From: Puniceicoccaceae bacterium
GTDB taxonomy: Bacteria > Verrucomicrobiota > Verrucomicrobiia > Opitutales > Oceanipulchritudinaceae
Length of the DNA: 64,000 nt
Direction of reading: 5' to 3'
Assembly (NCBI GenBank): GCA_040830765.1
Contig: JBFOMH010000004.1
Span: 1-64,000, forward strand
The notes under the pieces were generated by a model. That model ran no database searches and was not told the DNA's origin. It saw only the letters and a list, made by a program, of their open reading frames with translations. Position numbers and translations under genes: made by a program. The first letter of the stretch is position 1. Every line of letters starts with the position of its first letter. This document shows positions 5,819-61,809 of the stretch, in pieces.

Positions 5819-6519
5819 ACTGCGCCATCATTCCAGCCAGAGGTGGCAGCAAGCGGATTCCGAGAAAGAATGTCCGTGAATTCTGCGGCCGTCCGATGAT
5901 TGAATGGTCCATCCGGACAGCCATCGATTCAGGCCTCTTTTCGAGGATAATTGTCTCAACGGATGATCCCGAAATTTCAGAAGCCGCGCTGAAAGCCGGC
6001 GCCGAAGTTCCCTTTGTTCGGCCACCGGAAATTTCCGATGACACCACGCCGACCATCCAAGTCATCCGCCATGCCCTTGACTGGCTCGAGAGTGAGAATG
6101 CCGTTCCCGAGTTCGTCTGCTGCCTTTATGCCACAGCACCATTTTTAAGGCCTGCTTTCCTGCAAAAGTCGCTGGAGCAGCTCAGGTCGGACTCGGAAAC
6201 CGCCTTTCTCGTATCGGCGACAGAATACGCCTTTCCCATATTCCGAGCCCTCAAAACAGACCCGGAAGGCCGGGTATCCATGTTCTGGCCGGAGCATAAC
6301 CTGACCCGTTCCCAGGACCTGCCACCCGCCTTTCATGACGCGGGCCAATTCTACTGGGGAACCCCAACGGCCTTTCGAGAACACGAGGGATTTTTCAACG
6401 CTCCCTGCCGCCTTTTCCTTCTTCCTCCCCACCGGGTCCTCGACATCGATTCGCCGCAAGACTGGGAAAAGGCTGAGATAGCTTTTGAGATCATGAACCG
6501 ACTGCCTGCCGATGACTGA
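5815..6519 (+). CDS. pseF: Pseudaminic acid cytidylyltransferase
   Basis: AIIPARGGSKRIPRKN, CCLYATAPF, RSQDL...DAGQFYWG and DIDS..DW. Confidence 0.93.
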   Translation: MNCAIIPARGGSKRIPRKNVREFCGRPMIEWSIRTAIDSGLFSRIIVSTDDPEISEAALKAGAEVPFVRPPEISDDTTPTIQVIRHALDWLESENAVPEFVCCLYATAPFLRPAFLQKSLEQLRSDSETAFLVSATEYAFPIFRALKTDPEGRVSMFWPEHNLTRSQDLPPAFHDAGQFYWGTPTAFREHEGFFNAPCRLFLLPPHRVLDIDSPQDWEKAEIAFEIMNRLPADD

Positions 6520-16549: not shown

Positions 16550-17053
16550 TCAACCGGGCATGCTGCCCATGAGGGAAATCTCCTCCTGGAAAGCCGTGAT
16601 GAGCTCCGGGGAAATTTCCAGTTCCGGCACGGTCAACTCGCGCTTGGTCGGCATGTGCCGGAAGCGCTGACCGCCCAGCCGCTTCAGGATCCGTTTCCTT
16701 TCCAACTGCAGGGCGAGAAAGAATTTCAGGCGGTCCCGCGTTTCATCAACCAGTCCTTCGTCCCCCCCGTCCACCGGCTCCTCGAATAGACTGAGAAAAA
16801 TCTCATCCGCCGACTGCAGGGCGGCTCGCTTTTCCTCGGCCTCACTTGTTTCCTTTTCCTTTATTTGCTGGCTCCACCGGCAAATAACCGCCCCTTCCAG
16901 CTGCACGTCATCACGCTCCTCTTCAAGGATGTCCAAGCGGTCGATAAATCCCTCCTTGGTCCGGTAAAGATAGCTCCAGACAATATCACCCGCACTAAAC
17001 GGTGCTTCCGAGTGACCGGAAACTTTCCCCACGGACCTGATGGCGATATCCAT
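16550..17053 (-). CDS. Hypothetical protein
   Basis: 167-aa acidic ORF that fills the gap between neighbours; contains LALQLERKRILK. No function recognised. Confidence 0.7.
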   Translation of the reverse strand: MDIAIRSVGKVSGHSEAPFSAGDIVWSYLYRTKEGFIDRLDILEEERDDVQLEGAVICRWSQQIKEKETSEAEEKRAALQSADEIFLSLFEEPVDGGDEGLVDETRDRLKFFLALQLERKRILKRLGGQRFRHMPTKRELTVPELEISPELITAFQEEISLMGSMPG

Positions 17054-19761: not shown

Positions 19762-19847
19762 TAAAGAAGGGCCAGGACGCCACCCCTGCGGATATCGGTT
19801 CAGCCGTGCCTTGCATTCCTCCAATCGGGCCGCATAGTCCTCAATTC

Positions 19848-22652
19848 GTGGCAACCTCACTGCCCAGACCTGAGCGATTCTATGAGAAGATGACGCAACT
19901 GGCTGGTCGGCTTGGATTGACGGAGAAGTCGGGAACCCAAGGCGAACAACTGGCGCGTTATCGTGCTTATCTGGACCAATCCAGCCAGCTGATCGCGCGG
20001 TACCACCGGCGCGGAGGAAGCGGCTTACGGGTTGTGCACTGCCGTTCAATCGCCATCGACGTCCTGATTGCGCACCTGTACGACCTTGCCTGCCACCGGA
20101 TCAAGGAAGAACAGGGGAAGCTATGCGCGGCGGTGTCCCTGCTGGCGCTTGGCGGGTATGGCCGCTCCGAGCTCTGCCCGTTCAGCGATGTGGATCTGAT
20201 GTTTCTTTACCCGGCCAAGGTGAAGGCATCGGGATTCAAGGACATGCAGCGCCTGTTCAATGACACCATCCTCTACATGTTGTGGGACCTCAACCTCAAG
20301 GTAGGCCACAGTACCCGGACCATCAAGGAGGCCCTGGCCGAGGCGGAAGAGGATGAGCAAAGCAAGAATGCGATGCTGGAATCCCGACTGATCTGCGGGG
20401 ACGAAAGACTCTACAAGCAATTCTCAAAGGACTACAGTCGCTATATCCGCAAGGACAACGTCTTTGCCTATCTCACGGAACGGCTCAAGGACCAGTTGCA
20501 AAGGCGCGAGAAGCACGGAAACACCGTCTTTTTGCAGGAACCGGACATCAAGAGCGGGGTTGGTGGCCTGCGGGACTACCAGAACATGCTCTGGATGACC
20601 CGGCTGCAATATGACGGCAAGGGACTGGAACATCTGGTCAAGCTGAAGCTTATTCGGCGCAAGGAACACGCGGCACTGGTGAACGCGTACGACTTCCTGC
20701 TCCGTGTCCGCAATGAACTGCACTTCCTGAGCAACCGGGCCTCCGATCTGCTGGATATCGAGAAGCAGCCAAAAGTGGCCTGGGGGATCGGCTACAAGCA
20801 CCGCCCGATCTTTCCACGAGTGGAAGCGTTCATGCGGGATTACTACCAGGCTACCTACAAGATTTATCACCTCTCAACCTATCTTGAGAAGCGCATGTCC
20901 CTGAACGCGCAGACGTCTGTATCCTTCCATTCTGTTCTTGAGTCGAGGCGCCTTGGAAAAACGGAACGCTTTGACGGCTTTGCCGTCCAGGGAAACCTCC
21001 TCATGGCTGGTTCCGATTCTGTCTTCAAGGATGATCCGATTCGCCTCATCCGGGTATTCCGGCACATGCAATCACGAGGCCTTGAGCTGGACTTCGATCT
21101 AGAGCGCCTCATCGTGGAATCCCTCGAACTGATAACGCGCCCAGTCGTTGAATCAGAGGACGCCAACCGGTCATTCCGCTCCATTCTGCAGTCCAAAGGG
21201 AATGTCTACCCGATTCTCTACCTGATGAACACCACCGGGGTCCTGTCGGCCTTCATGCCGGAGTGGAAGGGCCTGCACTGCCTCGTCCAACATGAGTACT
21301 ATCACCGCTACCCGGCGGACGAACATGTGCTCAAGACGATCAAGGAACTGGATAATATCTTTTCCGGGGAAGAGCCGGGTTTAACCCGCAAATACCGCCA
21401 GGCCCTGGAAGAAACCGAGTTACCCGGGCTACTGTATTTGATCCTGCTCCTGCACGATATCGGGAAGTCGGAGGCCATTGAGAATCACAGTGAAATTGGT
21501 GCCCAAATGGCCGTTCCGGTCCTCGATCGCCTGCAAGTCGTCGAGAAGGCACGCGAAAAAATTCTCTTTCTGATTCGGAATCATCTGGAAATGGCACGAA
21601 TCTGGCAGAGATACGACCTGGATGACCCTCAAACTGCCAGTTTATTTGCCCAGATGGTCGGCTCCGGAGAAAACCTCCGGTACCTCTATGTCCTTACTTT
21701 CTGTGATGCTCGAGGAACATCCCATGGCTTGTGGAACGGATTCAAGGATGCTCTCCACCACAACCTGTACAAAATCACCCTTGGCTGCCTGCAGGCACCC
21801 GGTGCCACACCTCCCGCATTACCCATGATTTCACCCGCCAGTATTCTAAAGAAAGCTCCCAATCTTTCGGAAGAGGAAATCGAGGCCCACTTCAATCTTC
21901 TTCCGGATAGGTATTTCAGCTACCACAACGAGAAGGAAATCCTCCTTCACCTGGAAATGATCCACAGCCTGCTGCACAATATTTCCACGGCAGACTCGCT
22001 TGGCTCATTGGTACCGGTTGTTGAATGGGAGGATGACGTGAATCTCGGCCTGACGGTCGTCCATGTGGTGACCTGGGACCGGGCCGGATTGTTCTACAAG
22101 CTCTCCGGTGCCTTGACCCTGGCCGGCCTTTCCATTGTAAGCTCGAAGGCCTTGTCTCGTGCCGACCATATCACAATCGACACCTTCTATGTCAGTGATC
22201 CGGCCGGTGGCATGGTGAAGGACCCGGATGCCCTCAAGCTCTTCAAGCATCACCTCGAGGACACGCTTATCCGCAACGAGGACCTGTTCCCGAAAATCGC
22301 CGCCCAGGCTGAAAGCAACAGCCAGCCCAGCTACCTGAAGACGGACAGCACCCTGCAAACCTCCATTCCGGTCCGGGTGGATGTTTACCACGAGCTCTCG
22401 CTTAAGCGGACAATTATCGAAATCGAAGCCAATGATGAATTGGGTCTGCTCTACAAGCTGGCCCGGATTATCACCAGGCAGGGCTTTGACATTACCTTTG
22501 CGAGAATTTCCACCGAGCGCAAAGTGGCGGTCGACACTTTCTACATCGAACCCAACCAGCCGGGAACCGAAGAAGAGAATTCCGACCGCCTGATTGAGCT
22601 CAAGGAACAATTGCTGGAAGTCCTGCAAAGCTCACGCAAAGAGGTCTCCTGA
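19848..22652 (+). CDS. glnD: [Protein-PII] uridylyltransferase/uridylyl-removing enzyme
   Basis: ALGGYGRSELCPFSDVDL NTase motif, EPDIKSGVGGLRD, HD domain (HRYPADEH, LLHDIGK) and two ACT domains. Start is uncertain (GTG 19848 or ATG 19890). Confidence 0.95.
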   Translation: MATSLPRPERFYEKMTQLAGRLGLTEKSGTQGEQLARYRAYLDQSSQLIARYHRRGGSGLRVVHCRSIAIDVLIAHLYDLACHRIKEEQGKLCAAVSLLALGGYGRSELCPFSDVDLMFLYPAKVKASGFKDMQRLFNDTILYMLWDLNLKVGHSTRTIKEALAEAEEDEQSKNAMLESRLICGDERLYKQFSKDYSRYIRKDNVFAYLTERLKDQLQRREKHGNTVFLQEPDIKSGVGGLRDYQNMLWMTRLQYDGKGLEHLVKLKLIRRKEHAALVNAYDFLLRVRNELHFLSNRASDLLDIEKQPKVAWGIGYKHRPIFPRVEAFMRDYYQATYKIYHLSTYLEKRMSLNAQTSVSFHSVLESRRLGKTERFDGFAVQGNLLMAGSDSVFKDDPIRLIRVFRHMQSRGLELDFDLERLIVESLELITRPVVESEDANRSFRSILQSKGNVYPILYLMNTTGVLSAFMPEWKGLHCLVQHEYYHRYPADEHVLKTIKELDNIFSGEEPGLTRKYRQALEETELPGLLYLILLLHDIGKSEAIENHSEIGAQMAVPVLDRLQVVEKAREKILFLIRNHLEMARIWQRYDLDDPQTASLFAQMVGSGENLRYLYVLTFCDARGTSHGLWNGFKDALHHNLYKITLGCLQAPGATPPALPMISPASILKKAPNLSEEEIEAHFNLLPDRYFSYHNEKEILLHLEMIHSLLHNISTADSLGSLVPVVEWEDDVNLGLTVVHVVTWDRAGLFYKLSGALTLAGLSIVSSKALSRADHITIDTFYVSDPAGGMVKDPDALKLFKHHLEDTLIRNEDLFPKIAAQAESNSQPSYLKTDSTLQTSIPVRVDVYHELSLKRTIIEIEANDELGLLYKLARIITRQGFDITFARISTERKVAVDTFYIEPNQPGTEEENSDRLIELKEQLLEVLQSSRKEVS

Positions 22653-22737
22653 GCCGCCCTTGGGGAATAAAAGATTTGGATTGGAATGCCCCCGGCGGGC
22701 ACCATATTTAAATCCAGCTGGCATATCAGCGGACGGC

Positions 22738-24453
22738 ATGAGAAGAGGATCCGAGCAACAGGCAATTGACGCCCTTTACCGGGTTACCCGGGTGGTCAAC
22801 AGTACTGACGACCCCCGCGAGGCGCTGGAATTGATCATTGACGAGATCATGCATGTCCTGCCGGCGGAATCCGCTGCCATCGAGTTGATGAACCCGGACC
22901 GGACCCACCTCATGGTGGAAGTCTACCGCGGCTTTCCGAAGGAACTCACAGAAACCCACCTCAAGGTGGGGATGGGCGTGACAGGATGGGTGGCCCTGCA
23001 TGGTAAGGCCCTCAATATAGGAAATGTCCGTGAAGATGCCCGCTATATCGAGATCGATCCACGCATTCGATCCGAGCTCGCGGTCCCCATGCTGAATGAT
23101 TCCGGCTTGCTCATCGGGGTGGTCAATGTGGACAGTTCGAAGCCCGATGCCTTCAGCGACAGCGACAAGAAAATCCTCACCCTGCTGGCAGCGGAAGCGA
23201 CCCGTGTCCTCAGCCGGCTCTGGTTGATCCAGCAACTGCGCCATACCGCGGGACAGTTGGAGGCGCTGATCGACATCGCCCAGACCATTGCCACCAAACG
23301 ACGCCTGGAGGACCTCTTGCAGACCATCGCCTCCCGGTCGACCGAAATCATCGCCTGTAAGCTATCAGCAATCTTCCTGCTGAATCCTGAAGACGGTAAA
23401 CTGACCTTGCGGGCCGCCAGTGGCCTCGATGAACGGACCAACCTGAGTGAGAGCATCTCCCTTGAGGAATCCGCCATCGGCACCGCTTTCCGGCGTTGCA
23501 AGACGATTGAAATCAACGACCTGCCGAAGATTGAAGAACATCACTTCCAAGAGCTGATCCAGGAGGAAAACCTGGTCTCCATGCTCGCCTGTCCGATCCA
23601 TATCGAAAAGGAGGCCATCGGGGTGCTCAACATCTACATGGGGCACCAGCACTTCTTCACGGACAGCGAAAAGCGAGTCTTCGAGACGCTGGCCAGCCTT
23701 GGTGCTACCGCCATCCGCAACGCCCAGTTGTATGAACGGATTTTCCAGAGCGAGGAATTGCTCAGGCGCTCGGAGCGCTTAACCACCCTGGGACTGCTGT
23801 CGGCGGAAATCGCCCACGAGATCCGGAATCCCCTGACGGTCATCCAGTTGCTTTTCGAAAGCCTTTCGCTCGACTTCGAGGAAGCGGACCCGCGTTGCAA
23901 GGACGTCAAGGTCATCAACGAGAAGCTGAACCAGTTGGAATCAATCGTCAGCCGCGTCCTCGATTTCGGGAAGTCGCAACAGGAAATGCACTCGCGCTAC
24001 AACCTGGACCAGCTGATTGAGGATACCTTGCACCTTGTCCGACTGAAATTGCGCCAGTTGCAAGTGGAGGTTGAGTTTACCCGAGCCGCCGATCCCCCAC
24101 CCTATGCGGATGTCAACAAGGGACAGATCCAACAGGCCATCCTCAATCTCCTTATCAATGCCACCCAGGCCATGCCGGACGGTGGGCGTATCGAAATTTC
24201 CACGACAGTTGAGGGTGAAGACGACTTTCCCCTGGCGGTCATCCGCATCAGCGATAATGGGGGCGGCATCGATCCGGGATTGCATGACGCCATATTCGAC
24301 TCCTTCCTCACCGGCCGCCCGGACGGGACGGGCCTGGGGCTATCCATCGTGAAGCGAATCCTCAAGTCACACAGCGGATCCATCGAGGTGGAGAAAAGCA
24401 GCCCTGAAGGGACAACCATGAAGATGGCCCTGCCCCTGGCCACCATGCGATAA
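22738..24453 (+). CDS. Cytoplasmic GAF-GAF sensor histidine kinase
   Basis: Two GAF domains (GVTGWVA...RSELAVPM; SMLACPI...GVLNIY), H-box AHEIRNPL, N-box NLLINATQA, DNGGGI and GTGLGL. No TM segment. Confidence 0.9.
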   Translation: MRRGSEQQAIDALYRVTRVVNSTDDPREALELIIDEIMHVLPAESAAIELMNPDRTHLMVEVYRGFPKELTETHLKVGMGVTGWVALHGKALNIGNVREDARYIEIDPRIRSELAVPMLNDSGLLIGVVNVDSSKPDAFSDSDKKILTLLAAEATRVLSRLWLIQQLRHTAGQLEALIDIAQTIATKRRLEDLLQTIASRSTEIIACKLSAIFLLNPEDGKLTLRAASGLDERTNLSESISLEESAIGTAFRRCKTIEINDLPKIEEHHFQELIQEENLVSMLACPIHIEKEAIGVLNIYMGHQHFFTDSEKRVFETLASLGATAIRNAQLYERIFQSEELLRRSERLTTLGLLSAEIAHEIRNPLTVIQLLFESLSLDFEEADPRCKDVKVINEKLNQLESIVSRVLDFGKSQQEMHSRYNLDQLIEDTLHLVRLKLRQLQVEVEFTRAADPPPYADVNKGQIQQAILNLLINATQAMPDGGRIEISTTVEGEDDFPLAVIRISDNGGGIDPGLHDAIFDSFLTGRPDGTGLGLSIVKRILKSHSGSIEVEKSSPEGTTMKMALPLATMR

Positions 24454-24467
24454 GGTCCGCCGAACCC

Positions 24468-25103
24468 TCAGGAAACGTTTCGCTCGACCGGAAGGAAGTG
24501 CCGCCACTCCTGCTCGATCCGGGAAGAGGCAACCACTGCGGAGAAGGGACGCCACTTGGGCCGCACGGGCTTGCGGATGAGCTTCAATCCGGCTTCATGC
24601 GGAAGGCGGTTGGCCTTCAGGGAATTGATATCGCGCCGGCAGGTGACAATATTTTCCCAACTGGTGCGCCCGCCCCGTTCCCTTGGGATGACATGATCCA
24701 GGGTCAAATCCGAGGCCTTGCAGCGCTTGCCGGTGTACTGGCAAGTATAGTTGTCACGGATAAAGATATTTTCCCGGTTGAACTTGATTTCAGTGACCGG
24801 AAGACGGTCATAGCTGCGCAGGAGGAGAACCTTGGGAATGAGGATATTGAGGCGTACGGTATGGATAAAGTCCCTCCCGGGACCACCCTCAACCTCCTGG
24901 GAATAGGCGATCCACTCGCCGGCATCCATGGGAGCAAACTCGCCATTGGAGGTGTTGATGACCCGTGCATGATCCTGGCACAGCAAACTGAAGGCCCTGC
25001 GGACGCCGACAATGTTGACCGCCTGCCAGTTGCGGTTGAGGACCAGCACCCGGTGTCCGGCTACGGATGGCAAAAGGTCTGTTTGGTTGTTTTCGACTGA
25101 CAT
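24468..25103 (-). CDS. HNH endonuclease (McrA-like)
   Basis: VLVLNRNWQ, RENIFIRDNYTCQY, LTLDHVIPRERGG and WENIVTC...NSLKANR. Confidence 0.9.
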   Translation of the reverse strand: MSVENNQTDLLPSVAGHRVLVLNRNWQAVNIVGVRRAFSLLCQDHARVINTSNGEFAPMDAGEWIAYSQEVEGGPGRDFIHTVRLNILIPKVLLLRSYDRLPVTEIKFNRENIFIRDNYTCQYTGKRCKASDLTLDHVIPRERGGRTSWENIVTCRRDINSLKANRLPHEAGLKLIRKPVRPKWRPFSAVVASSRIEQEWRHFLPVERNVS

Positions 25104-25278: not shown

Positions 25279-26706
25279 ATGAGTAACCGGAAATACCGTC
25301 ACACCAAGATCGTCTTCACCATTGGTCCAGCAACCAACAATGTGGACACCCTGAGTGAGCTCTTGCACAAGGGGGTGGATGTCTGCCGCTTCAACATGGC
25401 GCATGCTGACCACGATTGGACCCGCGAGGCGATTGCCAACATCGAGGCGGCATCGAATGCTGTCGGCCGCCGTGTCGCCCTGATGATGGACGTCAAGGGT
25501 CCGGAAATCCGGACCGGCTTCCTGGAGGAAGCGTTCGAACTGGAACGGGATGAGGAGTTTGAATTTTTTCTCGATTCGGAAGCCGAACCTGTAACGACAG
25601 GGGTACGCGGCGTGCGCATCAATTATCCAAGTCTCAAGGACGACGTTGCGGTGGGTGATACCATTCTCGTCGACAGCGGCCTCATCCGGTTGCGCGTCCT
25701 CGAGGTGACAAATGAAAAGATCCGTTGCCTGGTCCGTATCGGCGGGCAACTGGGAAGCCGGCGTCATATCAACCTGCCGGGAGTCCACGTCAACCTCCCG
25801 GCCCTGACCATCAAGGACCGCAAGGATATTGAAATCGGGATCGAAAACGGGATCGACTTTTTTGCCCTCAGTTTTGTCCGCAGCGGGGATGACCTGGATA
25901 TCCTCCGGCGCTTTATCGAGGAACGGGGCTCAAAGGCCCGTATCATTGCCAAGATTGAGGACCAGTCCGCCATCTCCAATCTGGACGAAATCGTCACTGC
26001 TTCGGACGGCCTGATGGTAGCCCGGGGCGACCTCGGAATTGAGATTCCCTTTGAAACACTGCCGGTCGTCCAGCGACGGGCGGTCCGTACCTGCCAGAAG
26101 ATGGGCAAGCCGGTCATCGTCGCCACCCACATGCTGGAATCGATGATCACCAATCCCCTACCCACACGGGCGGAAATAACGGATATTTCCAATGCGGTGT
26201 TCGAGCAGGCGGACTGCGTCATGCTCTCTGGGGAGACCACTGTCGGGAAGTATCCTGTCGAGTGCGTCGACGTCATGAACAAGGTCATCCTGTCCGTGGA
26301 ATCGCAGGATGAGCGGCGGCACAATGAATCATTTCCCTTGCGCTCACCAAGGGCGCTGATGCTCAAGGCGGCGATGATTTTCAGTGATGAACTGTCGAAC
26401 AGCTCCATCCTGGTATTTACCCGCAGCGGCTACCTGGCCCGCACCCTGAGTGCCCTCCGCCCACGCAAGTCCCCGATTTTCGCCTTTACGGACGTGGAGG
26501 AGGTCTTTGAGAACCTTCTCATTTACTGGGGGGTGGAGCCATTCCTGATGGACTTCGATAAGGATCCCGAAACAACCGTCCAACGGGCACTGACCCGCCT
26601 GAAGGGGCGCGGTTGGGTCGAGAGCCGTCAGAATATCGTAGTCATCTCCAATGTGCTCGCGAGGGAGAAAGTAGTCGACAGCATCCAGTATCGAACGGTC
26701 CCTTAA
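25279..26706 (+). CDS. pyk: Pyruvate kinase
   Basis: TKIVFTIGPA, RFNMAH, DVKGPEIRTG, AKIE, MVARGDLG and MLSGETTVG. Confidence 0.97.
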   Translation: MSNRKYRHTKIVFTIGPATNNVDTLSELLHKGVDVCRFNMAHADHDWTREAIANIEAASNAVGRRVALMMDVKGPEIRTGFLEEAFELERDEEFEFFLDSEAEPVTTGVRGVRINYPSLKDDVAVGDTILVDSGLIRLRVLEVTNEKIRCLVRIGGQLGSRRHINLPGVHVNLPALTIKDRKDIEIGIENGIDFFALSFVRSGDDLDILRRFIEERGSKARIIAKIEDQSAISNLDEIVTASDGLMVARGDLGIEIPFETLPVVQRRAVRTCQKMGKPVIVATHMLESMITNPLPTRAEITDISNAVFEQADCVMLSGETTVGKYPVECVDVMNKVILSVESQDERRHNESFPLRSPRALMLKAAMIFSDELSNSSILVFTRSGYLARTLSALRPRKSPIFAFTDVEEVFENLLIYWGVEPFLMDFDKDPETTVQRALTRLKGRGWVESRQNIVVISNVLAREKVVDSIQYRTVP

Positions 26707-28055
26707 GCCTTCAACCGGTCGGGCCCGGCCAGGCCCTCAATACGATCCCGCAATCCCTTGCGGAACTTGAAGAATCCAGCACCCGCATGCGGCCAGTGGA
26801 CGGAATCCCACTGGTTACGGTATTCGAACAGCTTGATATTCCTCGCCTTGAGTGCTTTTCGCAAGTTGGCCGTCGCATCTTTCCAGGGACCTACCGGGGG
26901 TTGGACCATCCAGACAGACTTCAAATTTTCGTTTTGCGCCCAGGTAACGACACTTGGGACCCACTTGTCCACATAGCCTGTATGAACACGGGGATCCTCC
27001 ATCAAACCAACGTTACCGGAACCGGCCTTGCCAGCCTTACGACTTACCGTTCCGGAGTGGTTGACCACTTTGGCTGACCAGTGCTGGGCAGTACGACGGG
27101 CACAATCCTCGACCGCGCCATTGACGAAAGCGCGCACTCCGGGAGCAGCTTGAATGACATCCATCCGGTCAGCTCCGTTGAAAACACAAAATGAAGCGAA
27201 TGGACTGTCCTGAAGGGGGCCCAGTTCAGGAGTCAGCTCCTCCGGACAAACCAGCAAACCGGCAGGGCTCTCAGAGAGACTTGGAAACGCGTAAGCGGTC
27301 AAGGTATCAACGTTGGACAAAGGAATCTGCCGATGCGTCCGGGAAGGCACCAGATCGTTCGGTTGCTCGTTTAGCTGACCTTCCGGATTAAATTCACCGT
27401 TGGTATATTTGGCGATGTTGCTGGCACGGGCAATATATCGCTTCCCCTTGGTATGAAGCCCGGCTACCCAGCGCCACGACAATGTATTTGAAGCGGGATC
27501 GCCGTCCAGGAGGTGCTCAAGGAAGAAGGCTGCCCCCAACTCCCAGGGGAGGCGGAGCGTAAATATCCAAATACTGGCAAACCACATGCGGGCGTGATTG
27601 TGCAACCACCCGTTTGTTCGCAGCTGACCCACCCAATGGTCGAAGCACTCTATACCTGTTTGCCCGAATATGGCTGATTGCCAGCGCTCGAGATCCAAAT
27701 CATTCATCGTATCCGGCAACTGCTTCCGTTGCTCACGGTAGTGGGCCCAGATAGACGGATGCAATTCGAGATACCCCTTCCAGTAGGTCCGCCACGCGAC
27801 TTCCTCAATGAACTTGGCCGCTGTTTCGTAACTGTGCTCCCTGAGGACGGTGGCAATAACCTCCCGCTCACGAATTAGCCGGCTTCGGATGTAGGGACTC
27901 AAGCCGCTGACGTACAGACTGCCGGGGTAGTCATAGTTGCGCTTTGCGGCATATTGGGGAACCTTGTCGAGAAACTGGTCCAGCAAAGCAAGGCCCGCAT
28001 CCCGTGAGGATTCGAGCTCAAGCACGCCGACAACCTGCTCCTTGACTGATTTCAT
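26703..28055 (-). CDS. Photolyase with N-terminal FAD-binding domain (inverted domain order, NewPHL-like)
   Basis: YAAKRNYD, VSGLSPYI, KFIEEVAWRTYWKG, GWLHNHARMWFASIW and LLDGDPASNTLSWRWVAGLHT all lie in the N-terminal half. C-terminal WPHAGAGFFKF. Confidence 0.85.
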   Translation of the reverse strand: MKSVKEQVVGVLELESSRDAGLALLDQFLDKVPQYAAKRNYDYPGSLYVSGLSPYIRSRLIREREVIATVLREHSYETAAKFIEEVAWRTYWKGYLELHPSIWAHYREQRKQLPDTMNDLDLERWQSAIFGQTGIECFDHWVGQLRTNGWLHNHARMWFASIWIFTLRLPWELGAAFFLEHLLDGDPASNTLSWRWVAGLHTKGKRYIARASNIAKYTNGEFNPEGQLNEQPNDLVPSRTHRQIPLSNVDTLTAYAFPSLSESPAGLLVCPEELTPELGPLQDSPFASFCVFNGADRMDVIQAAPGVRAFVNGAVEDCARRTAQHWSAKVVNHSGTVSRKAGKAGSGNVGLMEDPRVHTGYVDKWVPSVVTWAQNENLKSVWMVQPPVGPWKDATANLRKALKARNIKLFEYRNQWDSVHWPHAGAGFFKFRKGLRDRIEGLAGPDRLKA

Positions 28056-28186
28056 GCATGAATATTCCAACTTTCCGGCAGATCTTTCACCAAAATTTCC
28101 ATCTGCGGTAAAAACGGCCGATGGACGGCAGAAATCGGGGGATTGGGCATTGCCAAAAGGCAACTGAATCCGTTCCATTCGTGGGC

Positions 28187-29464
28187 ATGAACGCTTCAAC
28201 CGAGCTCTTTGAGAAAGCCTCCCAGTTAATCCCCGGCGGAGTGAATTCCCCAGTCCGTGCCTTTCGCTCAGTCGGCGGGACGCCGTTTTTCACCCAATCT
28301 GCCAACGGCAGCCGCCTGACAACGGTCGACGGGACGGAATTAATTGATTTTGTCTGCACCTGGGGACCTGCCATTCACGGCCATAATCCTCCGAAAGTTC
28401 GTGAAGCCATTGCTGCGGCCCTGGAAAAGGGAACCAGCTTCGGGACCCCCAATCCTTATGAAGTGGAAATCGCCGAGCGTGTCATCGGAATGGTTCCCTC
28501 CCTTGAACAAGTCCGCTTTTGCAACTCGGGGACAGAGGCCACGATGAGCGCCATCCGCCTCGCTCGCGGGGCCACCGGGCGCTCAACCATTGTCAAGTTC
28601 GCCGGCTGTTACCACGGGCATGTTGATTCCTTGCTGGTCAAGGCAGGGTCCGGTGCCCTGACACACGGCAATCCTGACAGTGCCGGCATTCCGGCTGCCT
28701 TTGCGGCGGAAACCCGCGTCCTGGAGTATAATGACAGCGAGGGCCTGGCGTCCCTATTTGCCAGTGAAGGGGATTCCATTGCCGGTGTCATCGTGGAACC
28801 CTACCCGGCCAACTGCGGACTGATTCTTCCGAATCCCGGTTTTCTGGAACAGCTGCGGGAGCTCTGCACCCGGCATGGCACCATCCTCATTTTCGATGAA
28901 GTCATGACCGGATTCCGTCTCGCCGCTGGTGGCGTTCAGGAGTGTACCGGTGTCACCCCTGACCTTACGGCCATGGGTAAAATCATAGGTGGTGGCCTGC
29001 CGGTTGGCGCTTTTGGAGGCAAGCGGGAACTGATGCAGCAGCTGGCCCCGGTCGGCCCGGTTTACCAGGCTGGGACCCTGTCCGGAAATCCCCTCGCCAT
29101 GTCAGCTGGCATTGCCGCGCTCGACCTGCTCCTCGAACAGAATCCCTACAGCGAGCTGGATGCCATGGGCAGTCGCCTCAAGGAAGCCCTCTTGGCCACC
29201 GCTTCGGAAAAAGGCCTCCCCCTTCAGGTGCCCCAGACCGGTTCGATGTTCGCCTTTTTCTTCGCCGAGGAACCCGTGACAAACTTCACCCAGGTCATGG
29301 CCTCGGAAACCAGCCATTTCAAGGTCCTCTTCCGGGAGGCATTGGACCGGGGTGTTTATCTGCCGCCCAGTCCCTTTGAGACCTGTTTTATTTCCACCGC
29401 CCACCAGGACGGGGACATTGATCGGGCAGCGGAGGTTCTATGCGCCTCCATCAAGGCTATCTGA
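28187..29464 (+). CDS. hemL: Glutamate-1-semialdehyde 2,1-aminomutase
   Basis: [44 protein letters not shown] and [10 protein letters not shown]. Confidence 0.97.
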
Positions 29465-31255: not shown

Positions 31256-31693
31256 CTATTCGGACTCCCGGGATTCCATCTCGTTGATTTCATCCTCTCC
31301 GCGAAGCCATTTGATGTCGAAGCAGCGGACAATGAAATAAATGGCCACCCCGACTCCGACAAAGGGCAGAATAAAATGTTGGCTGCCCTCCCTTCCCGGA
31401 ATGAGCGTATCGAGATACATGGACATGAGCACGCTGAGGCAAATACTGAGCACACCTGCTGACGGAAAAAGGATCCGGGCCACCTCGACGGATATCTCGG
31501 GATCGACCTTGTGGACCACGTACCAGTTGACAAGAAACCACACCAGCATGGTCAGGAAAATCATGCCGATGAAATTCATGGCATCCTTTTGTCCCTGGAT
31601 AGCGAGCGTGGCAGACATCAGTAAAAGACAAAGGACTGCTGTCAGGGTGAGTATCTGCGAGAGGCGTAAAATGAATGAACGAAACATTCTCAT
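31256..31693 (-). CDS. Hypothetical 4-TM membrane protein
   Basis: Four hydrophobic segments; ends 21 nt before the mutL start on the same strand. Confidence 0.6.
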   Translation of the reverse strand: MRMFRSFILRLSQILTLTAVLCLLLMSATLAIQGQKDAMNFIGMIFLTMLVWFLVNWYVVHKVDPEISVEVARILFPSAGVLSICLSVLMSMYLDTLIPGREGSQHFILPFVGVGVAIYFIVRCFDIKWLRGEDEINEMESRESE

Positions 31694-31808
31694 CGGAAAA
31701 CAAGAGGATAGATTGAGGTAAATGATCAGTTCAAGGCAAACCCGAGGAGGCAAGAGTCAAATTCAGCAAAAGCTTGAGCAAATCCGGAAAGCGTCCATGA
31801 ATGCCACC

Positions 31809-39683: not shown

Positions 39684-40838
39684 CTACGCCTCCAGCAGGT
39701 CGACCATGAACTGCCCGGGACGGTAGTTGCCCATCAGGATAGTGGTCTGGCCGCCCTTGTGCATGCGGACTTCCGGAATCCGCACCTCCGGTGTCTTGTG
39801 GGGCGCGTAAAGGACATCATCATGGGAGGAATTCTTGTGCTCCTTGAACATGTCGGGAGTGATATTTCCCCCGAGATGGTCATCGCGCCCGGTAGCCACG
39901 TGAATCGTCCCGAGGATTTTTTCATCCTGGATATCCCGTCCACTGAAAGGCAGGACCTGCGTCCCGAATCCCAGCTCCCCGATGGCGCCGATCATGGGAT
40001 CGTCCTTGAGGCGGTTGTTGTGGTCCTCGATAAAGTCATACTCGCCATAAATCAGGCGGCTGCTGACGATCTTGCCACCCTCGACGGTCAGAAGTCCCAG
40101 GGTTTCCTCATCATACTTGAAGGGGAACTGGCCCTCCGCCCCTTCCGGGACGAAATAGACCTCACCGGCCGGGAGGTTAGCCACATCGGGCTTGCCGGGC
40201 GGGCAGAGACCATGACTCTTCTGGGCTTCCTGCCCGTTGGTAATGAGCCGCAGGGTGGTCTTCACGCCCTCGACCTCAAAGTCGATTTCGAACCAGTCCG
40301 CCTGGGTGAGTCCAAGGCGCAGCTTTTCCGCATCGCTGCTGACCTCGTCGTAATTCACGCTGAGTCCGGTATCGACGATGATCTGGTTAAGGCCATGCAG
40401 GGTGGCTCCACGGAAACCAAACTCCTTGGCCTTGGCGGTCAACGGAGCAGTGGCGGAAAAGGTCGAGACAATCAGGATAATGCCATAGTTGGGATAAATG
40501 TCCTTATCGAGGCTGAGTTTGTTGCCGTGGATGTCGTAGCACTCGTCCTCCATGTCGAGGTTGCTGCCGCCGGTCTCGTGGTAGGCATAAAAGTCGCCAT
40601 CGGTGTAGTTCATTTCCTCAAGGCCCCCGTTCTTGAAGCCCTCATAGAACACCTTGTGCCCGTAGTTCTGAATCGAGAGCCGCGGATTGTTGAGGAAGGC
40701 GAAATCCTTCACCTCCTTGGGATCGGGCAAATCGATCATGATGCAAAGGCGCTCCCCGGAACCCTTGCCAAAACAAGTCTCCATAAGGCGCTTGAGTGAG
40801 AAGGGAGCGAAGTTTCTTCTGCTTGCGTCGAATTCCAT
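39684..40838 (-). CDS. M29 (aminopeptidase T/AmpS)-like metalloenzyme
   Basis: NLPAGEVY, GELGFG, DEKILGTIHVATG and HDD match the E/E/E/H/H/D ligand pattern of the M29 fold. Confidence 0.65.
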   Translation of the reverse strand: MEFDASRRNFAPFSLKRLMETCFGKGSGERLCIMIDLPDPKEVKDFAFLNNPRLSIQNYGHKVFYEGFKNGGLEEMNYTDGDFYAYHETGGSNLDMEDECYDIHGNKLSLDKDIYPNYGIILIVSTFSATAPLTAKAKEFGFRGATLHGLNQIIVDTGLSVNYDEVSSDAEKLRLGLTQADWFEIDFEVEGVKTTLRLITNGQEAQKSHGLCPPGKPDVANLPAGEVYFVPEGAEGQFPFKYDEETLGLLTVEGGKIVSSRLIYGEYDFIEDHNNRLKDDPMIGAIGELGFGTQVLPFSGRDIQDEKILGTIHVATGRDDHLGGNITPDMFKEHKNSSHDDVLYAPHKTPEVRIPEVRMHKGGQTTILMGNYRPGQFMVDLLEA

Positions 40839-49629: not shown

Positions 49630-49683
49630 GAACCGACCAACAAAACGCCTCCTGCCCTTTCCCACAATGGCAAATTTTCCTCT

Positions 49684-49710
49684 TTGACATGATTTTTACA
49701 TTTGTAAAAC
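49684..49710 (+). promoter_or_regulatory. Candidate sigma70 promoter (TTGACA) overlapped by the perfect palindrome TTTTACA-TT-TGTAAAA
   Basis: TTGACA at 49684-49689 and palindrome at 49694-49709. The SD-like AGGAGA lies just upstream of the ATG at 49751. Confidence 0.55.
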
Positions 49711-49750
49711 CTGCACATATCCCTCAACCTTGGGACAGGAGAATTAGAAC

Positions 49751-50518
49751 ATGGCGAAACCAAAACCACTCATACTGATCGTCGAGGACGATCCTGAACT
49801 TGCCCAGTTGATTTCCGACCAGCTGGAATCGGCAGGAATGCTGACCCAGGTCCATCACCGGGCCGCCAACGTTACCCGCTACCTGCAGAACAACTTTGCC
49901 AACCTGATGTTGCTGGACGTCAACCTTCCGGACCAGTCGGGATTTGCCCTAGTTGACACCCTCAAGCAGGAGGACATCGACCTTCCGGTCATCTTCCTGA
50001 CGGGTAACGACAGCGAAACGGACCGCGTCAAGGGCCTGGAAATGGGCGGAGACGACTACATTACCAAGCCCTTCAGCTTCAGTGAGCTGGTGGCCCGGAT
50101 CAATGCCGTCCTGCGCCGCGCGGAGACCTCCAAGGATGACAAGGTGACCAAGAACGCCAGTGTCTCGGAGGAACCCTTTGAGTTCCAGGGGGCGATGGTG
50201 AATCCGGAACGGATGGAAATCGGCTTCCCGGATGGGGAGTCGGTCAAGATTGGGCGCAAGGAACTGGGCATCCTGTCCTTCCTCAATTCCAATCCGAACA
50301 CGGTCATCACCCGCCGGACCCTCATCCACGGCGTCTGGGGCATCCATGCCGACGTCCGCAGCCGCAGTCTTGACCAGTACATCGTCAAGGTCCGGGGCCT
50401 CTACCAGAAGCACGGACTCAACCTGGATGCGTTCAAGACCATCCATGGTGTGGGCTACATCTACAACACCGAGGGGGAGGCGGATGAAGCCGAGTCCACG
50501 GAGAGCCCGGTAGAGTAG
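49751..50518 (+). CDS. OmpR/PhoB-family DNA-binding response regulator
   Basis: Receiver domain with VEDD, phosphoacceptor LLDVNLP, FLTG and YITKPF. Winged-helix output with HGVWG, RSLDQYI and TIHGVGY. Confidence 0.94.
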   Translation: MAKPKPLILIVEDDPELAQLISDQLESAGMLTQVHHRAANVTRYLQNNFANLMLLDVNLPDQSGFALVDTLKQEDIDLPVIFLTGNDSETDRVKGLEMGGDDYITKPFSFSELVARINAVLRRAETSKDDKVTKNASVSEEPFEFQGAMVNPERMEIGFPDGESVKIGRKELGILSFLNSNPNTVITRRTLIHGVWGIHADVRSRSLDQYIVKVRGLYQKHGLNLDAFKTIHGVGYIYNTEGEADEAESTESPVE

Positions 50519-50529
50519 GCTCCCTGCCC

Positions 50530-51186
50530 ATGGAACTGGAACCGAAAACGATCCGGGTCCTTGGAGCCCTGATGGAGAAGGCCCGTACAACCCCGGAAAG
50601 CTACCCCCTTACCCTCAACGCGCTGGTCCATGCCTGTAACCAGAAGACCAGCCGGGACCCCGTGACGGACTATGACGAGGACGAGGTACTGGACGCGCTG
50701 GACGCGCTGCGGGAAATGGGATTCGTCATGCGGGTCGATCTGGCCGGCTCACGAACCGCCAAATTCCGGGAGAACCTGAGTACCCAATGGGACCTGAGTG
50801 CTGAAGAATATGCCCTCCTGGCCACCCTCTTCCTGCGGGGTGCACAGACCCCCGGGCAGCTCCGCCAGCGTTCCGACCGCATGCACCCGTTTGCTGACTT
50901 GCAGCAGGTGAATGATTGTCTGCACCAGATGCAGGAACGGGAGGAAGAGCCGCATTGCCTCGTCCGGTCGCTGGAACGCGCCGCCGGGACCAAGGAGATC
51001 CGCTGGGAACACACCTTTTTACCGGAATCCGCCCCGGCAGCTGGGATTGTTGAAGAGGAGGAGCAGAAACTTCCACCCCCGCAAAACCAGCAACCCAGCC
51101 GGATTGACCAGCTGGAGGAAAGACTGGCGGCATTTGAAAACCGCCTCAAGGCCATCGAGGAGCTGCTCCATGAGCTCAACGACTGA
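50530..51186 (+). CDS. yceH: YceH family protein (DUF480)
   Basis: RVLGALMEKARTTPESYPLTLNALVHACNQKTSRDPV and LRGAQTPGQLRQRSDRMHPF, plus a C-terminal coiled coil. Confidence 0.9.
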   Translation: MELEPKTIRVLGALMEKARTTPESYPLTLNALVHACNQKTSRDPVTDYDEDEVLDALDALREMGFVMRVDLAGSRTAKFRENLSTQWDLSAEEYALLATLFLRGAQTPGQLRQRSDRMHPFADLQQVNDCLHQMQEREEEPHCLVRSLERAAGTKEIRWEHTFLPESAPAAGIVEEEEQKLPPPQNQQPSRIDQLEERLAAFENRLKAIEELLHELND

Positions 51187-52492
51187 ACCCACGGGGAACG
51201 GTCTGGTTCTCCTCGACCACAAGACGGTCATCAAGGGGAAGTTTCCACCACTGGAGGTCTATCCGCTTGATGCCCCGACCGGATCCGCCTGGGTGGGTGA
51301 GTTTGACGGAAAGGTGGCATGGCTGTCACTGGGTGACCTCGACGAAAACGCCATCCGCCGATACTGGAAAGGGGAAGTCCGGATCGCAGATGAAGGCCGC
51401 ATCGGTCCTGGGGACCTGTTTGAGGCTTTCCAGGGACAAGCCCGGCTGGAACTGGTGCCCGTCGGGACTGCGTTCCAGCTGTCGGTCTGGCAGGAGCTGG
51501 TTCGTATTCCTTTTGCCACTACACTGACCTATGGGGAACTGGCCGAACGGCTTGGCTCGCCTTCCAAGGCAAGGGCTGTCGGCACGGCAGTGGGGGCCAA
51601 CCCCATCGCCTGGCTCATTCCCTGCCACCGGATCCTTCCGGCTGGGGGCGGCATTGGCAGCTACCGCTGGGGCAGCGCGATCAAGGAGAGCCTCCTGAAC
51701 TGGGAAAACCAGCCCCATCCCACCGGCGCTCCCGATCAGGATGTCGAGGACATCCGCAAGCTGGAAGCGATGCTGCTCAATGCCCAGCGCTTTGAGGACA
51801 TCGCCAAGCTGGCCGGGCACATTGCCCATGACTTGAACAACCTCCTCGCCCCCATCCGGATGGCGACCGAGTTACTGAAGCGCAAACTGGAAGATGATTC
51901 GGTCGGGCGTTATGTGGAAATCATCGAGACCAGTACCGGCCGGGCCCGGGCGGTGATCCAGGAAATCCTTACCTATGCGAGGGAATCGGAAAGCGCGGAC
52001 GCGGAAGTGATCGACATCAACCAGCTTCTCGAGGAACTGGAAGGTCTGGCAGATGATACTTTCCCGGATACGATTACCCTGTCATTTGACTATGATCCGG
52101 AAACTCCCCTGGTGAGCATTGCCCCGCACCAGCTGCACCGCTCCATCCTCAATCTTCTGGTCAATGCCCGGGACGCCATTTCCGGCAGCGGCGAAATCCG
52201 GGTCAAAGTCAGCACCCATGATTTGGAAATGCGGGTCTGCGTCGGGGACCGGTGCATTGTCCCGGGACGTTATGCCTGTATTTCCGTTTCGGATACGGGT
52301 TGTGGCATCAGTCCGGAAATCCGGGAGGAAATATTTGATCCCTTCTTCACCACCAAGCCGAAGGAGAAAGGTACGGGCCTCGGGCTGGCCTCGGTCTTCG
52401 GGATCATCGCCCGATCGGGTGGATTCATCGACCTCGAATCAATCGAGGGCAAGGGCTCGACATTCCATCTGTTCCTGCCTGAAGCAGGATGA
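51170..52492 (+). CDS. Fusion protein: methylated-DNA--protein-cysteine S-methyltransferase (Ogt) plus histidine kinase (HisKA-HATPase_c)
   Basis: Ogt part: GTAFQLSVW..L..IP...TYGELA..LG.P..ARAVG.A...NP....IPCHR...YRWG..K..LL.WE. Coiled-coil linker, then AGHIAHDLNNLL, NLLVNARDA, DTGCGI, IFDPFFTTK and GTGLGL in one uninterrupted frame. Confidence 0.92.
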   Translation: MSSTTEPTGNGLVLLDHKTVIKGKFPPLEVYPLDAPTGSAWVGEFDGKVAWLSLGDLDENAIRRYWKGEVRIADEGRIGPGDLFEAFQGQARLELVPVGTAFQLSVWQELVRIPFATTLTYGELAERLGSPSKARAVGTAVGANPIAWLIPCHRILPAGGGIGSYRWGSAIKESLLNWENQPHPTGAPDQDVEDIRKLEAMLLNAQRFEDIAKLAGHIAHDLNNLLAPIRMATELLKRKLEDDSVGRYVEIIETSTGRARAVIQEILTYARESESADAEVIDINQLLEELEGLADDTFPDTITLSFDYDPETPLVSIAPHQLHRSILNLLVNARDAISGSGEIRVKVSTHDLEMRVCVGDRCIVPGRYACISVSDTGCGISPEIREEIFDPFFTTKPKEKGTGLGLASVFGIIARSGGFIDLESIEGKGSTFHLFLPEAG

Positions 52493-60720: not shown

Positions 60721-61809
60721 ATGGGCGCATTCCCCGAAAGTCGTCCAACCACATCCCCCGATACGAAGCAAGCAGCGCTGATATGCCCGGAAGATGTGGA
60801 TTGGATTTTTGACGTTGATACACTCCGTTCCGCCGGAGGGGAAACGTTGATGCGGCTACATGGATTGGAAGAGGCGCCGAAGGACTATCCCCACTATCCC
60901 TTTAACCTGAGCAACAGCTCTGCCGTCATCTGGGACCAGACGGTCCGGAAGCTTTCCATGGCAGCCGGGGAATCCCACCTCATCGTCACCGGGCACAGCC
61001 GCAGCGAGGCCCAGGACATTGTCTTCTATGCCCGCATCGCCGGATACCGTGAGGAAGGCCTGCCGCGGATTGCCGCCACTTTCCAGAAGATTGACCAATC
61101 GAGTTACCAGACGGTAGCCGACTCCACCCGTCAAAACTGGCTCTATCTCCTTCACGAGATCAAGAACCCGATCTCCATCCTCAAGACCGCCGAGGACCTG
61201 GAGTTCCAGAAGGCGACTGGTGGAGTGAGTCCCGAAGAGGCCTCCCAGACCCGGCTCTTTGCCATGGCCTGCCTCGAGGACCACCTGCGCAACGGGGTCT
61301 TCCTGGCCACTGAGGATTCACGGATGATCCCCAGTCACCCTGAGCCGCTTGACCTGAAGATCTTCCTCGACGATGTCCGCGCAACCTTCCAGACCCTCCT
61401 GCGCCTGCAGAATAACACACTGGAAGTGAAGCTGGATATCGACACCCACCAGGTTGCCCGGATCGACCGCACCCTGCTGGCCCAGCTGCTCAATAACCTT
61501 CTCCTGAACAAGATGAACGTCCTCCAGGGAGAGACCGTTGTCCTCGAGTGCTCCCTCGGCAGTTCGAGGCATGACGGAAGCGGGACCCACCTTGTCATCA
61601 CCATCGAGGACGAGGGACCGCCCTTCCCGGAATTTGTCCTCCACGGCGGTGAACAGGAAATCAACCTTGAGGGCCTCCTCCAAGTGCAGCGCAGCTCCGG
61701 TTTAGGCTTGCCGATTTGCCGAAGAATTGCCTCCGTAATGGGAGGAGAAATCAAGTTCTACAACGATGCGCCAAAAACCCGCATCCGTATCTGGTTGCCC
61801 CTTGAATAG
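60721..61809 (+). CDS. Atypical cytoplasmic histidine kinase
   Basis: H-box LHEIKNPI, N-box QLLNNLLLN, degenerate G1 box DEGPPF, no clear F-box, G2 box SSGLGL...MGG. Confidence 0.7.
   Translation: MGAFPESRPTTSPDTKQAALICPEDVDWIFDVDTLRSAGGETLMRLHGLEEAPKDYPHYPFNLSNSSAVIWDQTVRKLSMAAGESHLIVTGHSRSEAQDIVFYARIAGYREEGLPRIAATFQKIDQSSYQTVADSTRQNWLYLLHEIKNPISILKTAEDLEFQKATGGVSPEEASQTRLFAMACLEDHLRNGVFLATEDSRMIPSHPEPLDLKIFLDDVRATFQTLLRLQNNTLEVKLDIDTHQVARIDRTLLAQLLNNLLLNKMNVLQGETVVLECSLGSSRHDGSGTHLVITIEDEGPPFPEFVLHGGEQEINLEGLLQVQRSSGLGLPICRRIASVMGGEIKFYNDAPKTRIRIWLPLE

Follow-up and report, generated by a model that had tools for sequence, protein, structure and literature searches.

The DNA analyzed here comprises positions 1 to 64,000 of contig JBFOMH010000004.1 from a Puniceicoccaceae bacterium, a marine member of Verrucomicrobiota (the window, 64 kb), and it contains a gene in which an O6-alkylguanine-DNA alkyltransferase (AGT) has been joined in frame to the N-terminus of a histidine kinase. 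This fusion is genuine and conserved and has, so far, gone undescribed. Its product is a soluble, presumably dimeric, sensor kinase of the HisKA type, with what structural modeling indicates to be a complete AGT in the N-terminal sensor position. It is plausible, if somewhat short of probable, that alkylation of the AGT active-site cysteine, Cys152, controls the output of the kinase. The protein is arranged in the order two-domain AGT, short disordered linker, HisKA, and HATPase_c, and its parts map to the DNA as follows.

51170..52492, + strand: AGT-histidine kinase fusion gene (P0001); 440 amino acids plus stop, ATG at 51170, stop at 52490-52492, a single open frame

51248..51454, + strand: AGT N-terminal domain, residues 27-95; AlphaFold2 and Foldseek match to whole OGT structures

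51455..51709, + strand: AGT C-terminal catalytic and DNA-binding domain, residues 96-180; PF01035, TIGR00589, alignments to 4bhb and 1sfe

51710..51736, + strand: flexible linker, residues 181-189; low predicted local distance difference test (pLDDT) scores, hypervariable, rich in proline, glycine, and serine, variable in length

51737..51985, + strand: dimerization and histidine phosphotransfer (DHp, HisKA) helical hairpin, residues 190-272; phospho-acceptor His220 (51827-51829), motif H-D-L-N-N

51986..52489, + strand: catalytic ATP-binding (CA) domain, residues 273-440; N, G1, F, and G2 boxes; HATPase_c

Pfam searches placed DNA_binding_1 (PF01035) at residues 101-180 (98 bits, cut-off 27), which assigns the module to the AGT family, HisKA at residues 213-272 (44.6 bits, cut-off 26.9), and HATPase_c at residues 319-439 (79.2 bits, cut-off 26.4, E 3.9e-22). 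The NCBIfam model TIGR00589 (“ogt”) scored 92.4 bits, against a cut-off of 46.4. The kinase half has the hallmarks of the HisKA class, a DHp domain with the conserved histidine and a HATPase_c domain with N, G1, F, and G2 boxes. No PAS, GAF, or further domain was detected by Pfam at E<=0.1, and no transmembrane segment was apparent, the highest 19-residue Kyte-Doolittle mean being 1.43, within the CA domain. An earlier interpretation based on the letters of the DNA (the sequence-only reading) had described one frame encoding an Ogt/MGMT protein and a kinase, without transmembrane, PAS, or GAF elements, with the cysteine codon at 51623-51625 and the H-box histidine at 51827. The open reading frame (ORF), Pfam, motif, and hydropathy analyses agree with this description, every catalytic motif being intact, and recomputation showed both coordinates to be exact, corresponding to Cys152 and His220.

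A sequence search of the PDB matched residues 91-184 to Mycobacterium tuberculosis OGT (4bhb) and to the C-terminal domain of Escherichia coli Ada (Ada-C, 1sfe). The N-terminal AGT domain (PF02870) was not detected by Pfam in the fusion protein. An AlphaFold2 model of residues 1-190 (40 sequences) gave a pLDDT of 91.8 and a predicted template-modeling score (pTM) of 0.86, and Foldseek aligned it with whole M. tuberculosis OGT (4wxd/4bhb); the alignment spanned 162 columns, the target having 165 residues, and the template-modeling (TM) score was 0.80 by target. The model also superposed on Ada-C (TM 0.75) and on human and archaeal AGTs. Because it covers nearly the whole of M. tuberculosis OGT, the AGT module is, as modeled, a complete two-domain AGT; the N-terminal domain claimed in the sequence-only reading is thus supported by the fold match, although Pfam is silent.

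In AGTs generally, a tyrosine, an arginine finger, an asparagine hinge, a glutamate, and the acceptor cysteine have established roles in the catalytic network. The corresponding residues of the fusion, Tyr121 (in TYG), Arg135 (in RAVG), Asn144, Pro151-Cys152-His153-Arg154, and Glu179, align to those of 4bhb and 1sfe. Y121, R135, A136, N144, P151, C152, H153, R154, K172, and E179 were invariant in all 38 aligned fused homologues, and the PCHR motif was kept in 49 of 49 fused clusters. Were the module an inert leftover, loss of the cysteine would be expected; the retention of PCHR and of the catalytic residues suggests instead that the AGT chemistry is under selection, and we infer that the module is active in DNA repair. 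Alkyltransferase-like (ATL) proteins have the active-site cysteine replaced and lack the N-terminal domain; assignment of the module to this class was rejected, given the invariant Cys152 and the presence of the N-domain.

The modules of 46 fused proteins were compared with 98 standalone AGTs of 150-200 amino acids, the PCHR-containing subset of 119 proteins (P0263-P0381). In the C-domain, the fused family conserves the columns that the standalone enzymes conserve too. The pocket is of the Ada type, with Ala147 in 98% and Trp167 in 96% of the fused modules; passages of a 2023 review link the equivalent E. coli Ada residues to the exclusion of bulky alkyl groups (PMC10779285). The N-domain differed, with W41 (91% of fused versus 3% of standalone modules), G43 (93 versus 8), W51 (98 versus 6), S53 (98 versus 12), G55 (98 versus 16), Y65 (96 versus 6), and G68 (98 versus 5) being largely specific to the fused family. 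The contrast is due in part to a fused set that is phylogenetically narrower, yet these positions stand out from a background of 45% mean pairwise identity for that domain. These family-specific residues are consistent with an added interaction surface.

Residues 204-437 matched the DHp-CA structure of CckA (5idj) in the PDB sequence search, with an E value of 7.5e-42 and 36-38% identity. The boxes of the kinase core were identified as H220, N328/N332, D375xGxG, F389/F392, and G401xGxG, and H220 to N224, N328, N332, D375, G377, G379, F389, F392, G401, G403, and G405 were invariant in the 38 aligned fused homologues. The H-D-L-N-N sequence is the motif of a HisKA core of the bifunctional, kinase/phosphatase type. 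The CckA cores (5idj/5idm) were the best match of the kinase half in both structure and sequence, but the fusion kinase, unlike CckA, has neither PAS domains nor a receiver, and NCBIfam scores fell far below the cut-offs for CckA (187.8 versus 1000 bits), VirA-like (203.1 versus 647), and NtrB (97.6 versus 240) proteins, so that none of these identities was accepted. The “CckA/NtrB-type” label given to the core in the sequence-only reading describes a resemblance, seen with the NCBIfam models of CckA, VirA-like, and NtrB proteins as well, but not membership in the CckA or NtrB equivalog families. The only other kinase-core match in the window is a GAF-containing kinase (22594-24453; 29% identity).

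In the full-length AlphaFold2 model (pLDDT 84.2, pTM 0.50), the AGT closes with a helix at residues 169-180, residues 183-189 have pLDDT values below 50, and the DHp helices span residues 190-239 and 243-272. The segment previously taken for a coiled-coil linker (EDIRKLEAM...) is actually the start of DHp helix 1, and the true linker is limited to residues 181-189. PCHR and the H-box were 68 residues apart in 32 of 48 fused forms, and the spacing varied between 63 and 71 overall.

A homology search of a 5.8-billion-protein collection, clustered at 90% identity, revealed the fused architecture in 49 of the best 120 clusters, with 46-87% identity to the query. All 49 contain PF01035 and HisKA, and HATPase_c is present in all but one entry, which is cut off. 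Four source collections (ncbi, jgi, ena, and lgn) contributed to these clusters, and the names given, Puniceicoccaceae bacterium, Oceanipulchritudo sp., and the isolate Puniceicoccales bacterium CK1056, all belong to Puniceicoccales (for Oceanipulchritudo: Verrucomicrobiota, Opitutia, Puniceicoccales). The isolate carries the fusion (P0023) on a 1.19-Mb contig. When 1.84 billion representatives clustered at 50% were searched, just three of the best 150 matches belonged to the fused family: P0029, P0121, and P0074, the last of which is truncated. A whole-protein query of the ESM Atlas returned generic kinase clusters, with no PF01035-kinase cluster of at least 50 members among the matches listed. 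Taken together, the fusion is conserved across a family-level clade in many independent assemblies.

That a chimeric assembly or a frameshift joined separate ogt and kinase genes is scarcely conceivable, because 49 independent clusters share the fusion, far beyond what chance would give, which excludes an assembly chimera. The same junction recurs across the four source collections, including the long contig of the isolate, and base composition is smooth over it. No close standalone AGT with this N-domain was found among the matches listed, the next best having 46% identity and 125 bits. The sole short AGT-only relative among them is P0205 (170 amino acids, 56-57% identity); its contig measures 1051 bp, and the protein has probably been truncated where that contig stops. 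The sequence-only reading had named absence of the fusion from all relatives as a refuting condition, and the fusion proved to be far from absent there.

Not all close relatives carry the AGT. Among the best 120 clusters, 19 “naked” kinases (within P0045-P0067) of 253-283 amino acids share 63-76% identity with the kinase half of the fusion. Wherever a name is given, it is Puniceicoccaceae or Opitutales. In 17 of the 19, the protein begins with the peptide of the fused forms, M-[NST]-S-x-P-E, and continues straight into the linker and DHp. The naked kinases thus appear to be in-frame, AGT-less versions rather than fragments. They have no recognizable input domain, just a short disordered leader ahead of DHp. 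Another 16 relatives (P0068-P0084 less P0074) have an unrelated N-domain of about 150 amino acids, with or without a C-terminal receiver (hybrid kinases). This N-domain received no Pfam name even at E<=5, and was placed beside PAS_3 clusters by language-model features in the ESM Atlas (score 0.96), which is taken as a lead.

A maximum-likelihood tree of the kinase core was calculated from 94 of 96 rows, leaving out P0074, which is truncated, and P0081, in which no H-box matched. One clade of 67 rows united all 48 fused with all 19 naked forms, with a Shimodaira-Hasegawa-like approximate likelihood ratio (SH-aLRT) value of 97, in a quick search for which SH-aLRT was the sole measure of support. 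The naked forms are nested inside the fused clade, and the naked label requires five changes on the tree, at least three of them forced by supported branches. Holding the naked rows together as one clade cost 68.4 log-likelihood units and was rejected by the approximately unbiased (AU) test (p=0.0014), for a group that was defined after the tree had been seen. On the simplest reading, the AGT would have been acquired once, at the sensor position, and later lost cleanly several times; repeated gains are less likely. Gene fission was rejected as the origin of the naked forms in favor of in-frame loss, because no close standalone AGT with this N-domain was found among the matches listed. The fused-plus-naked clade lies nearest to the kinases with the N-domain of about 150 amino acids, and the AGT occupies the slot in which these sister kinases carry that domain, whose PAS-like character has the standing of a lead.

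The fusion kinase is encoded by the last of three genes that run head to tail on the + strand, after an OmpR-type regulator and a DUF480/YceH protein. The elements of this operon upstream of the kinase are listed here.

49666..49750, no strand: intergenic region of 85 bp between the divergent hisE (- strand) and the regulator gene (+ strand), a presumed promoter/operator

49694-49709, no strand: perfect 7-bp palindrome with a 2-bp spacer, within 49666..49750

49751..50518, + strand: OmpR/PhoB-family response regulator of 255 amino acids, receiver and winged-helix domains; ends 11 nt before the DUF480 gene

50530..51186, + strand: DUF480/UPF0502/YceH-family protein of 218 amino acids; Pfam DUF480 3.5e-55

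51170..51186, + strand: overlap of the DUF480 and kinase genes, 17 nt, translational coupling; GAGGAG 7 nt upstream of the ATG

A consensus scan found no sigma-70 site in 49666-49750. The palindrome may be a candidate operator, or may have arisen by chance in an AT-rich stretch. The regulator contains Response_reg at residues 8-118 (1.4e-26) and Trans_reg_C at residues 162-237 (4.4e-13), and its best NCBIfam matches were PhoB and CreB, all below the cut-offs. It is the presumed cognate partner of the fusion kinase, with which it shares the operon. The operon is flanked by housekeeping genes: upstream, on the opposite strand, lie hisG, hisE, and a 5′-3′ exonuclease gene, and downstream lie tatA, cdd, and a gene for an AI-2E transporter. 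The PDB relatives of the DUF480 protein (5u8j, 5vyv, and 3bz6) are all unannotated “UPF0502” entries. Structures of DUF480/YceH proteins have been solved and, to our knowledge, no function is known for the family, even in E. coli.

Adjacency of the two overlapping genes was assessed in relatives by comparing, by eye, the base-identical “longest_contig” values of DUF480 homologues (P0382-P0501) and of the kinases. A DUF480 contig match was found for 28 of 49 fused, 9 of 19 naked, and 3 of 16 other-N-domain kinases. Contigs of <=10 kb accounted for 14 of the fused, 4 of the naked, and 2 of the other-N-domain matches, an example being a 2175-bp contig with P0010 and P0442. The overlap itself was tested by asking if one stretch of 17 nt could encode both the last five residues and stop of DUF480 and the beginning of the kinase on the matching contig. 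This held for 32 of 40 pairs (23/28 fused, 9/9 naked, and 0/3 other-N-domain), compared with 149 of 1560 mismatched control pairs, a background that is not negligible, since many pairs share the same peptides. By these two indirect tests, DUF480 and the kinase are apparently neighbors, coupled in translation, across the whole fused-plus-naked clade. Their 17-nt overlap accounts for the M-x-S-x-P-E leader that the kinases conserve. A kinase-peptide scan of genome contigs returned at least 80 loci, which encode unrelated CckA-like kinases with 31-40% identity over residues ~149-440 only; among the best 80 of these, tblastn found neither DUF480 (0/80) nor the AGT part (0/80).

The mechanism proposed for alkylation sensing would begin with binding of the AGT module to DNA and the flipping-out of O6-methylguanine (O6-meG) into the narrow, Ada-like pocket bearing Ala147 and Trp167, and the methyl group would then pass irreversibly to Cys152. 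As in the AGTs that have been studied, alkylation would be expected to loosen the link between the two AGT domains and to destabilize the protein strongly. Passages of a study of the Sulfolobus solfataricus OGT (PMC4605297) report that methylation lowers the melting temperature from 80 to 60 °C, a loss of ~20 °C, and perturbs the inter-domain contact, and that changes at this link impair both stability and repair; the same passages describe alkylated human AGT as highly unstable, and state that alkylation lowers OGT DNA binding just slightly. In the fusion, the AGT would sit on about nine flexible residues directly above DHp helix 1, and its change upon alkylation, or a concomitant alteration in proteolysis or in how it is tethered to DNA, would tip the balance of kinase and phosphatase activity toward the regulator. 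The regulator would then change transcription, probably that of its own operon too, such that the spent one-shot sensor is replaced and repair capacity is raised. In this scheme, we infer the coupling of alkylation to the kinase, its direction, and the regulon. The intact kinase core with its H-D-L-N-N motif, and the DNA-binding output regulator in the same operon, support a sensory role. A broader proposal, in which a suicide repair enzyme serves as a one-shot covalent sensor in an Ada-independent adaptive response of Puniceicoccales, with DUF480/YceH as an accessory or co-sensor, is put forward more tentatively.

The closest functional precedent is E. coli Ada, in which irreversible self-methylation leads to a transcriptional response and autoinduction restores the spent protein. 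The C-terminal AGT of Ada is of the same sub-type as that of the fusion, with YRWG, and with Ala and Trp at the positions of human P140 and G160, respectively, according to passages of the 2023 review (PMC10779285). Ada differs, however, in sensing through an N-terminal Zn-Cys4 methylphosphotriester domain and in acting as an AraC-type activator. As passages of the same review state, Ada is triggered when its N-terminal Zn domain, and not the Ogt-like domain, repairs a methylphosphotriester (PMC10779285). Neither an Ada_Zn_binding nor an AraC domain was found in the fusion protein by Pfam at E<=0.1. Identity with Ada was rejected, the NCBIfam Ada score being 80.3 bits against a cut-off of 345, with the match confined to the AGT part (residues 96-181). 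A signal from the fusion, if there is one, would originate in the domain that accepts the methyl group of O6-meG and would be passed on by phosphorelay. Because Ada is triggered by N-terminal phosphotriester repair, triggering by an AGT domain would differ from it in sensor, lesion, and output.

Several observations weigh against alkylation control of the kinase. The parallel with Ada drawn in the sequence-only reading stands insofar as self-methylation leads to transcription in both schemes, but is looser than claimed, since the Ada trigger is the Zn domain. The linker, disordered and hypervariable, differs in length among the fused forms, leaving no continuous signaling helix between AGT and DHp, and the full-length pTM of 0.50 means that no confident packing of the AGT on the kinase is predicted. 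No other ogt, ada, alkA, alkB, or aidB gene was found in the 64-kb window. Tight coupling of DUF480/YceH to the kinase is seen with and without the AGT, and the true input of the signal could be this protein. The kinase apparently does not need the AGT, which is an optional add-on to a pre-existing DUF480-kinase(-regulator) module: because the naked relatives keep the kinase, the leader peptide, and the DUF480 coupling, the core system presumably works, and must receive input, without it. For this reason, the earlier claim that Ogt is the only possible input could not be maintained, given 19 close AGT-less relatives that retain kinase, N-terminal peptide, and coupled DUF480/YceH. What survives of the sensor interpretation is the intact, conserved architecture in the sensor slot; the sole-input argument and the signaling coiled coil do not.

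These observations raise the possibility, by no means small yet short of likely, that the AGT is a passenger or effector: the signal would enter elsewhere, through the coupled DUF480/YceH or through expression level, and the AGT would merely be a repair enzyme that became joined to the next product encoded downstream and is thereby co-expressed, perhaps localized to the nucleoid. The recurrence of AGT-less orthologues that retain DUF480 coupling, with all nine contig-matched naked pairs compatible with the overlap, fits such a role, as do the flexible, length-variable linker and the low inter-domain confidence. AGTs are also fused to unrelated functions elsewhere, the examples given in passages of the 2023 review being endonuclease V (EndoV) and a histone-like domain (PMC10779285). 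A passenger would not, however, be expected to be inserted exactly at the sensor position, between the short leader and DHp helix 1, in the PAS-like slot of the sister kinases, nor does it readily account for N-domain residues that are nearly invariant in the family and rare in standalone AGTs. The fusion has, moreover, been maintained down to 46% identity in 49 clusters, and a suicide enzyme made one-to-one with a low-copy signaling protein would be a poor supply for bulk repair. An input by DNA tethering or lesion recognition, in the manner of ATL proteins, is improbable; here the AGT would dock the kinase dimer on DNA, and output would follow occupancy and not Cys152 alkylation. Tyr121, Arg135, and Asn144, which contact DNA, are invariant, both other operon products have winged-helix domains, and alkylated AGTs nearly keep their DNA binding, so that binding and transfer are separable (passages of PMC4605297). 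Against this stands the invariance of Cys152, His153, and Glu179 in the fused forms: ATL-type binders lose the cysteine that the fused forms strictly keep, which indicates that transfer likely matters.

Compared with standalone AGTs, such as M. tuberculosis OGT (4bhb) and E. coli Ogt, the fusion module has the two-domain fold and the catalytic and DNA-binding residues in common, but is linked to a kinase, has family-specific N-domain residues, and has no close standalone orthologue among the matches listed. The AGT also occurs as a joined module in Ferroplasma AGT-EndoV, in ATL-EndoV, and in Caenorhabditis elegans AGT-2, as passages of the review describe (PMC10779285); the partners there are DNA-repair or chromatin domains, often without the AGT N-domain, whereas here a signaling kinase is joined to a complete AGT. 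The sister kinases of Puniceicoccales and Opitutales, naked or with the PAS-like N-domain, have an orthologous core and share the DUF480 neighbor, but lack the AGT. A full-text literature search, whose coverage excludes subscription journals, revealed no paper on an AGT-kinase fusion, in keeping with the earlier remark that no characterized protein has this architecture. The available portion of the 2023 AGT family review (PMC10779285) contains neither “histidine kinase” nor “two-component”, and names EndoV and a histone-like domain as fusion partners; “kinase” does not occur in the available portion of PMC3788762. DUF480/YceH was met in the literature only as an unannotated protein, for example in the available part of a preprint (bioRxiv 10.1101/2025.05.07.652715).

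If alkylation of Cys152 does control the kinase, the fusion would be the first two-component sensor to use a stoichiometric DNA-repair reaction as its input, and would add to Ada a second way of adapting to alkylation, by a different mechanism. As a naturally occurring “counting” sensor that works irreversibly, it could be reset only through resynthesis, and each molecule would log one O6-methylguanine repair event as a change in regulator phosphorylation. Were DUF480 an accessory or co-sensor, this would be the first functional context for that family; the coupling of DUF480/YceH to a kinase is, in any case, a concrete lead on a widespread family, independent of the AGT question. If the AGT is instead a passenger, the fusion would caution that an enzyme domain in a “sensor slot” need not be a sensor. 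The natural AGT-less orthologues offer built-in controls, and CK1056 (Oceanipulchritudo coccoides), a relative that carries the fusion, is cultivable and not a pathogen.

Other features of the window include a GlnD-like PII uridylyltransferase gene (19806-22652), followed by the GAF-HisKA-HATPase_c kinase gene (22594-24453), the longest ORFs of which overlap by ~59 nt. A standalone HNH endonuclease gene (24468-25103, - strand; 211 amino acids) lies between the GAF kinase and pyruvate kinase genes. The ORF at 26703-28199 (- strand; 498 amino acids) matched DNA photolyase in the FAD-binding domain alone (residues 130-274), with no N-terminal photolyase domain at E<=1e-5, and may be a variant of the cryptochrome/photolyase family. 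At 60721-61809 (+ strand), a protein of 362 amino acids has a C-terminal HATPase_c domain and no HisKA at E<=1e-5, and the next gene encodes a TPR protein that runs past the end of the window. Six sizeable ORFs matched no Pfam family at E<=1e-5 (115-1014, 2167-3588, 6512-8227, 16550-17053, 31256-31753, and 39684-40838), several of them lying within a polysaccharide-biosynthesis cluster (1-13.6 kb).

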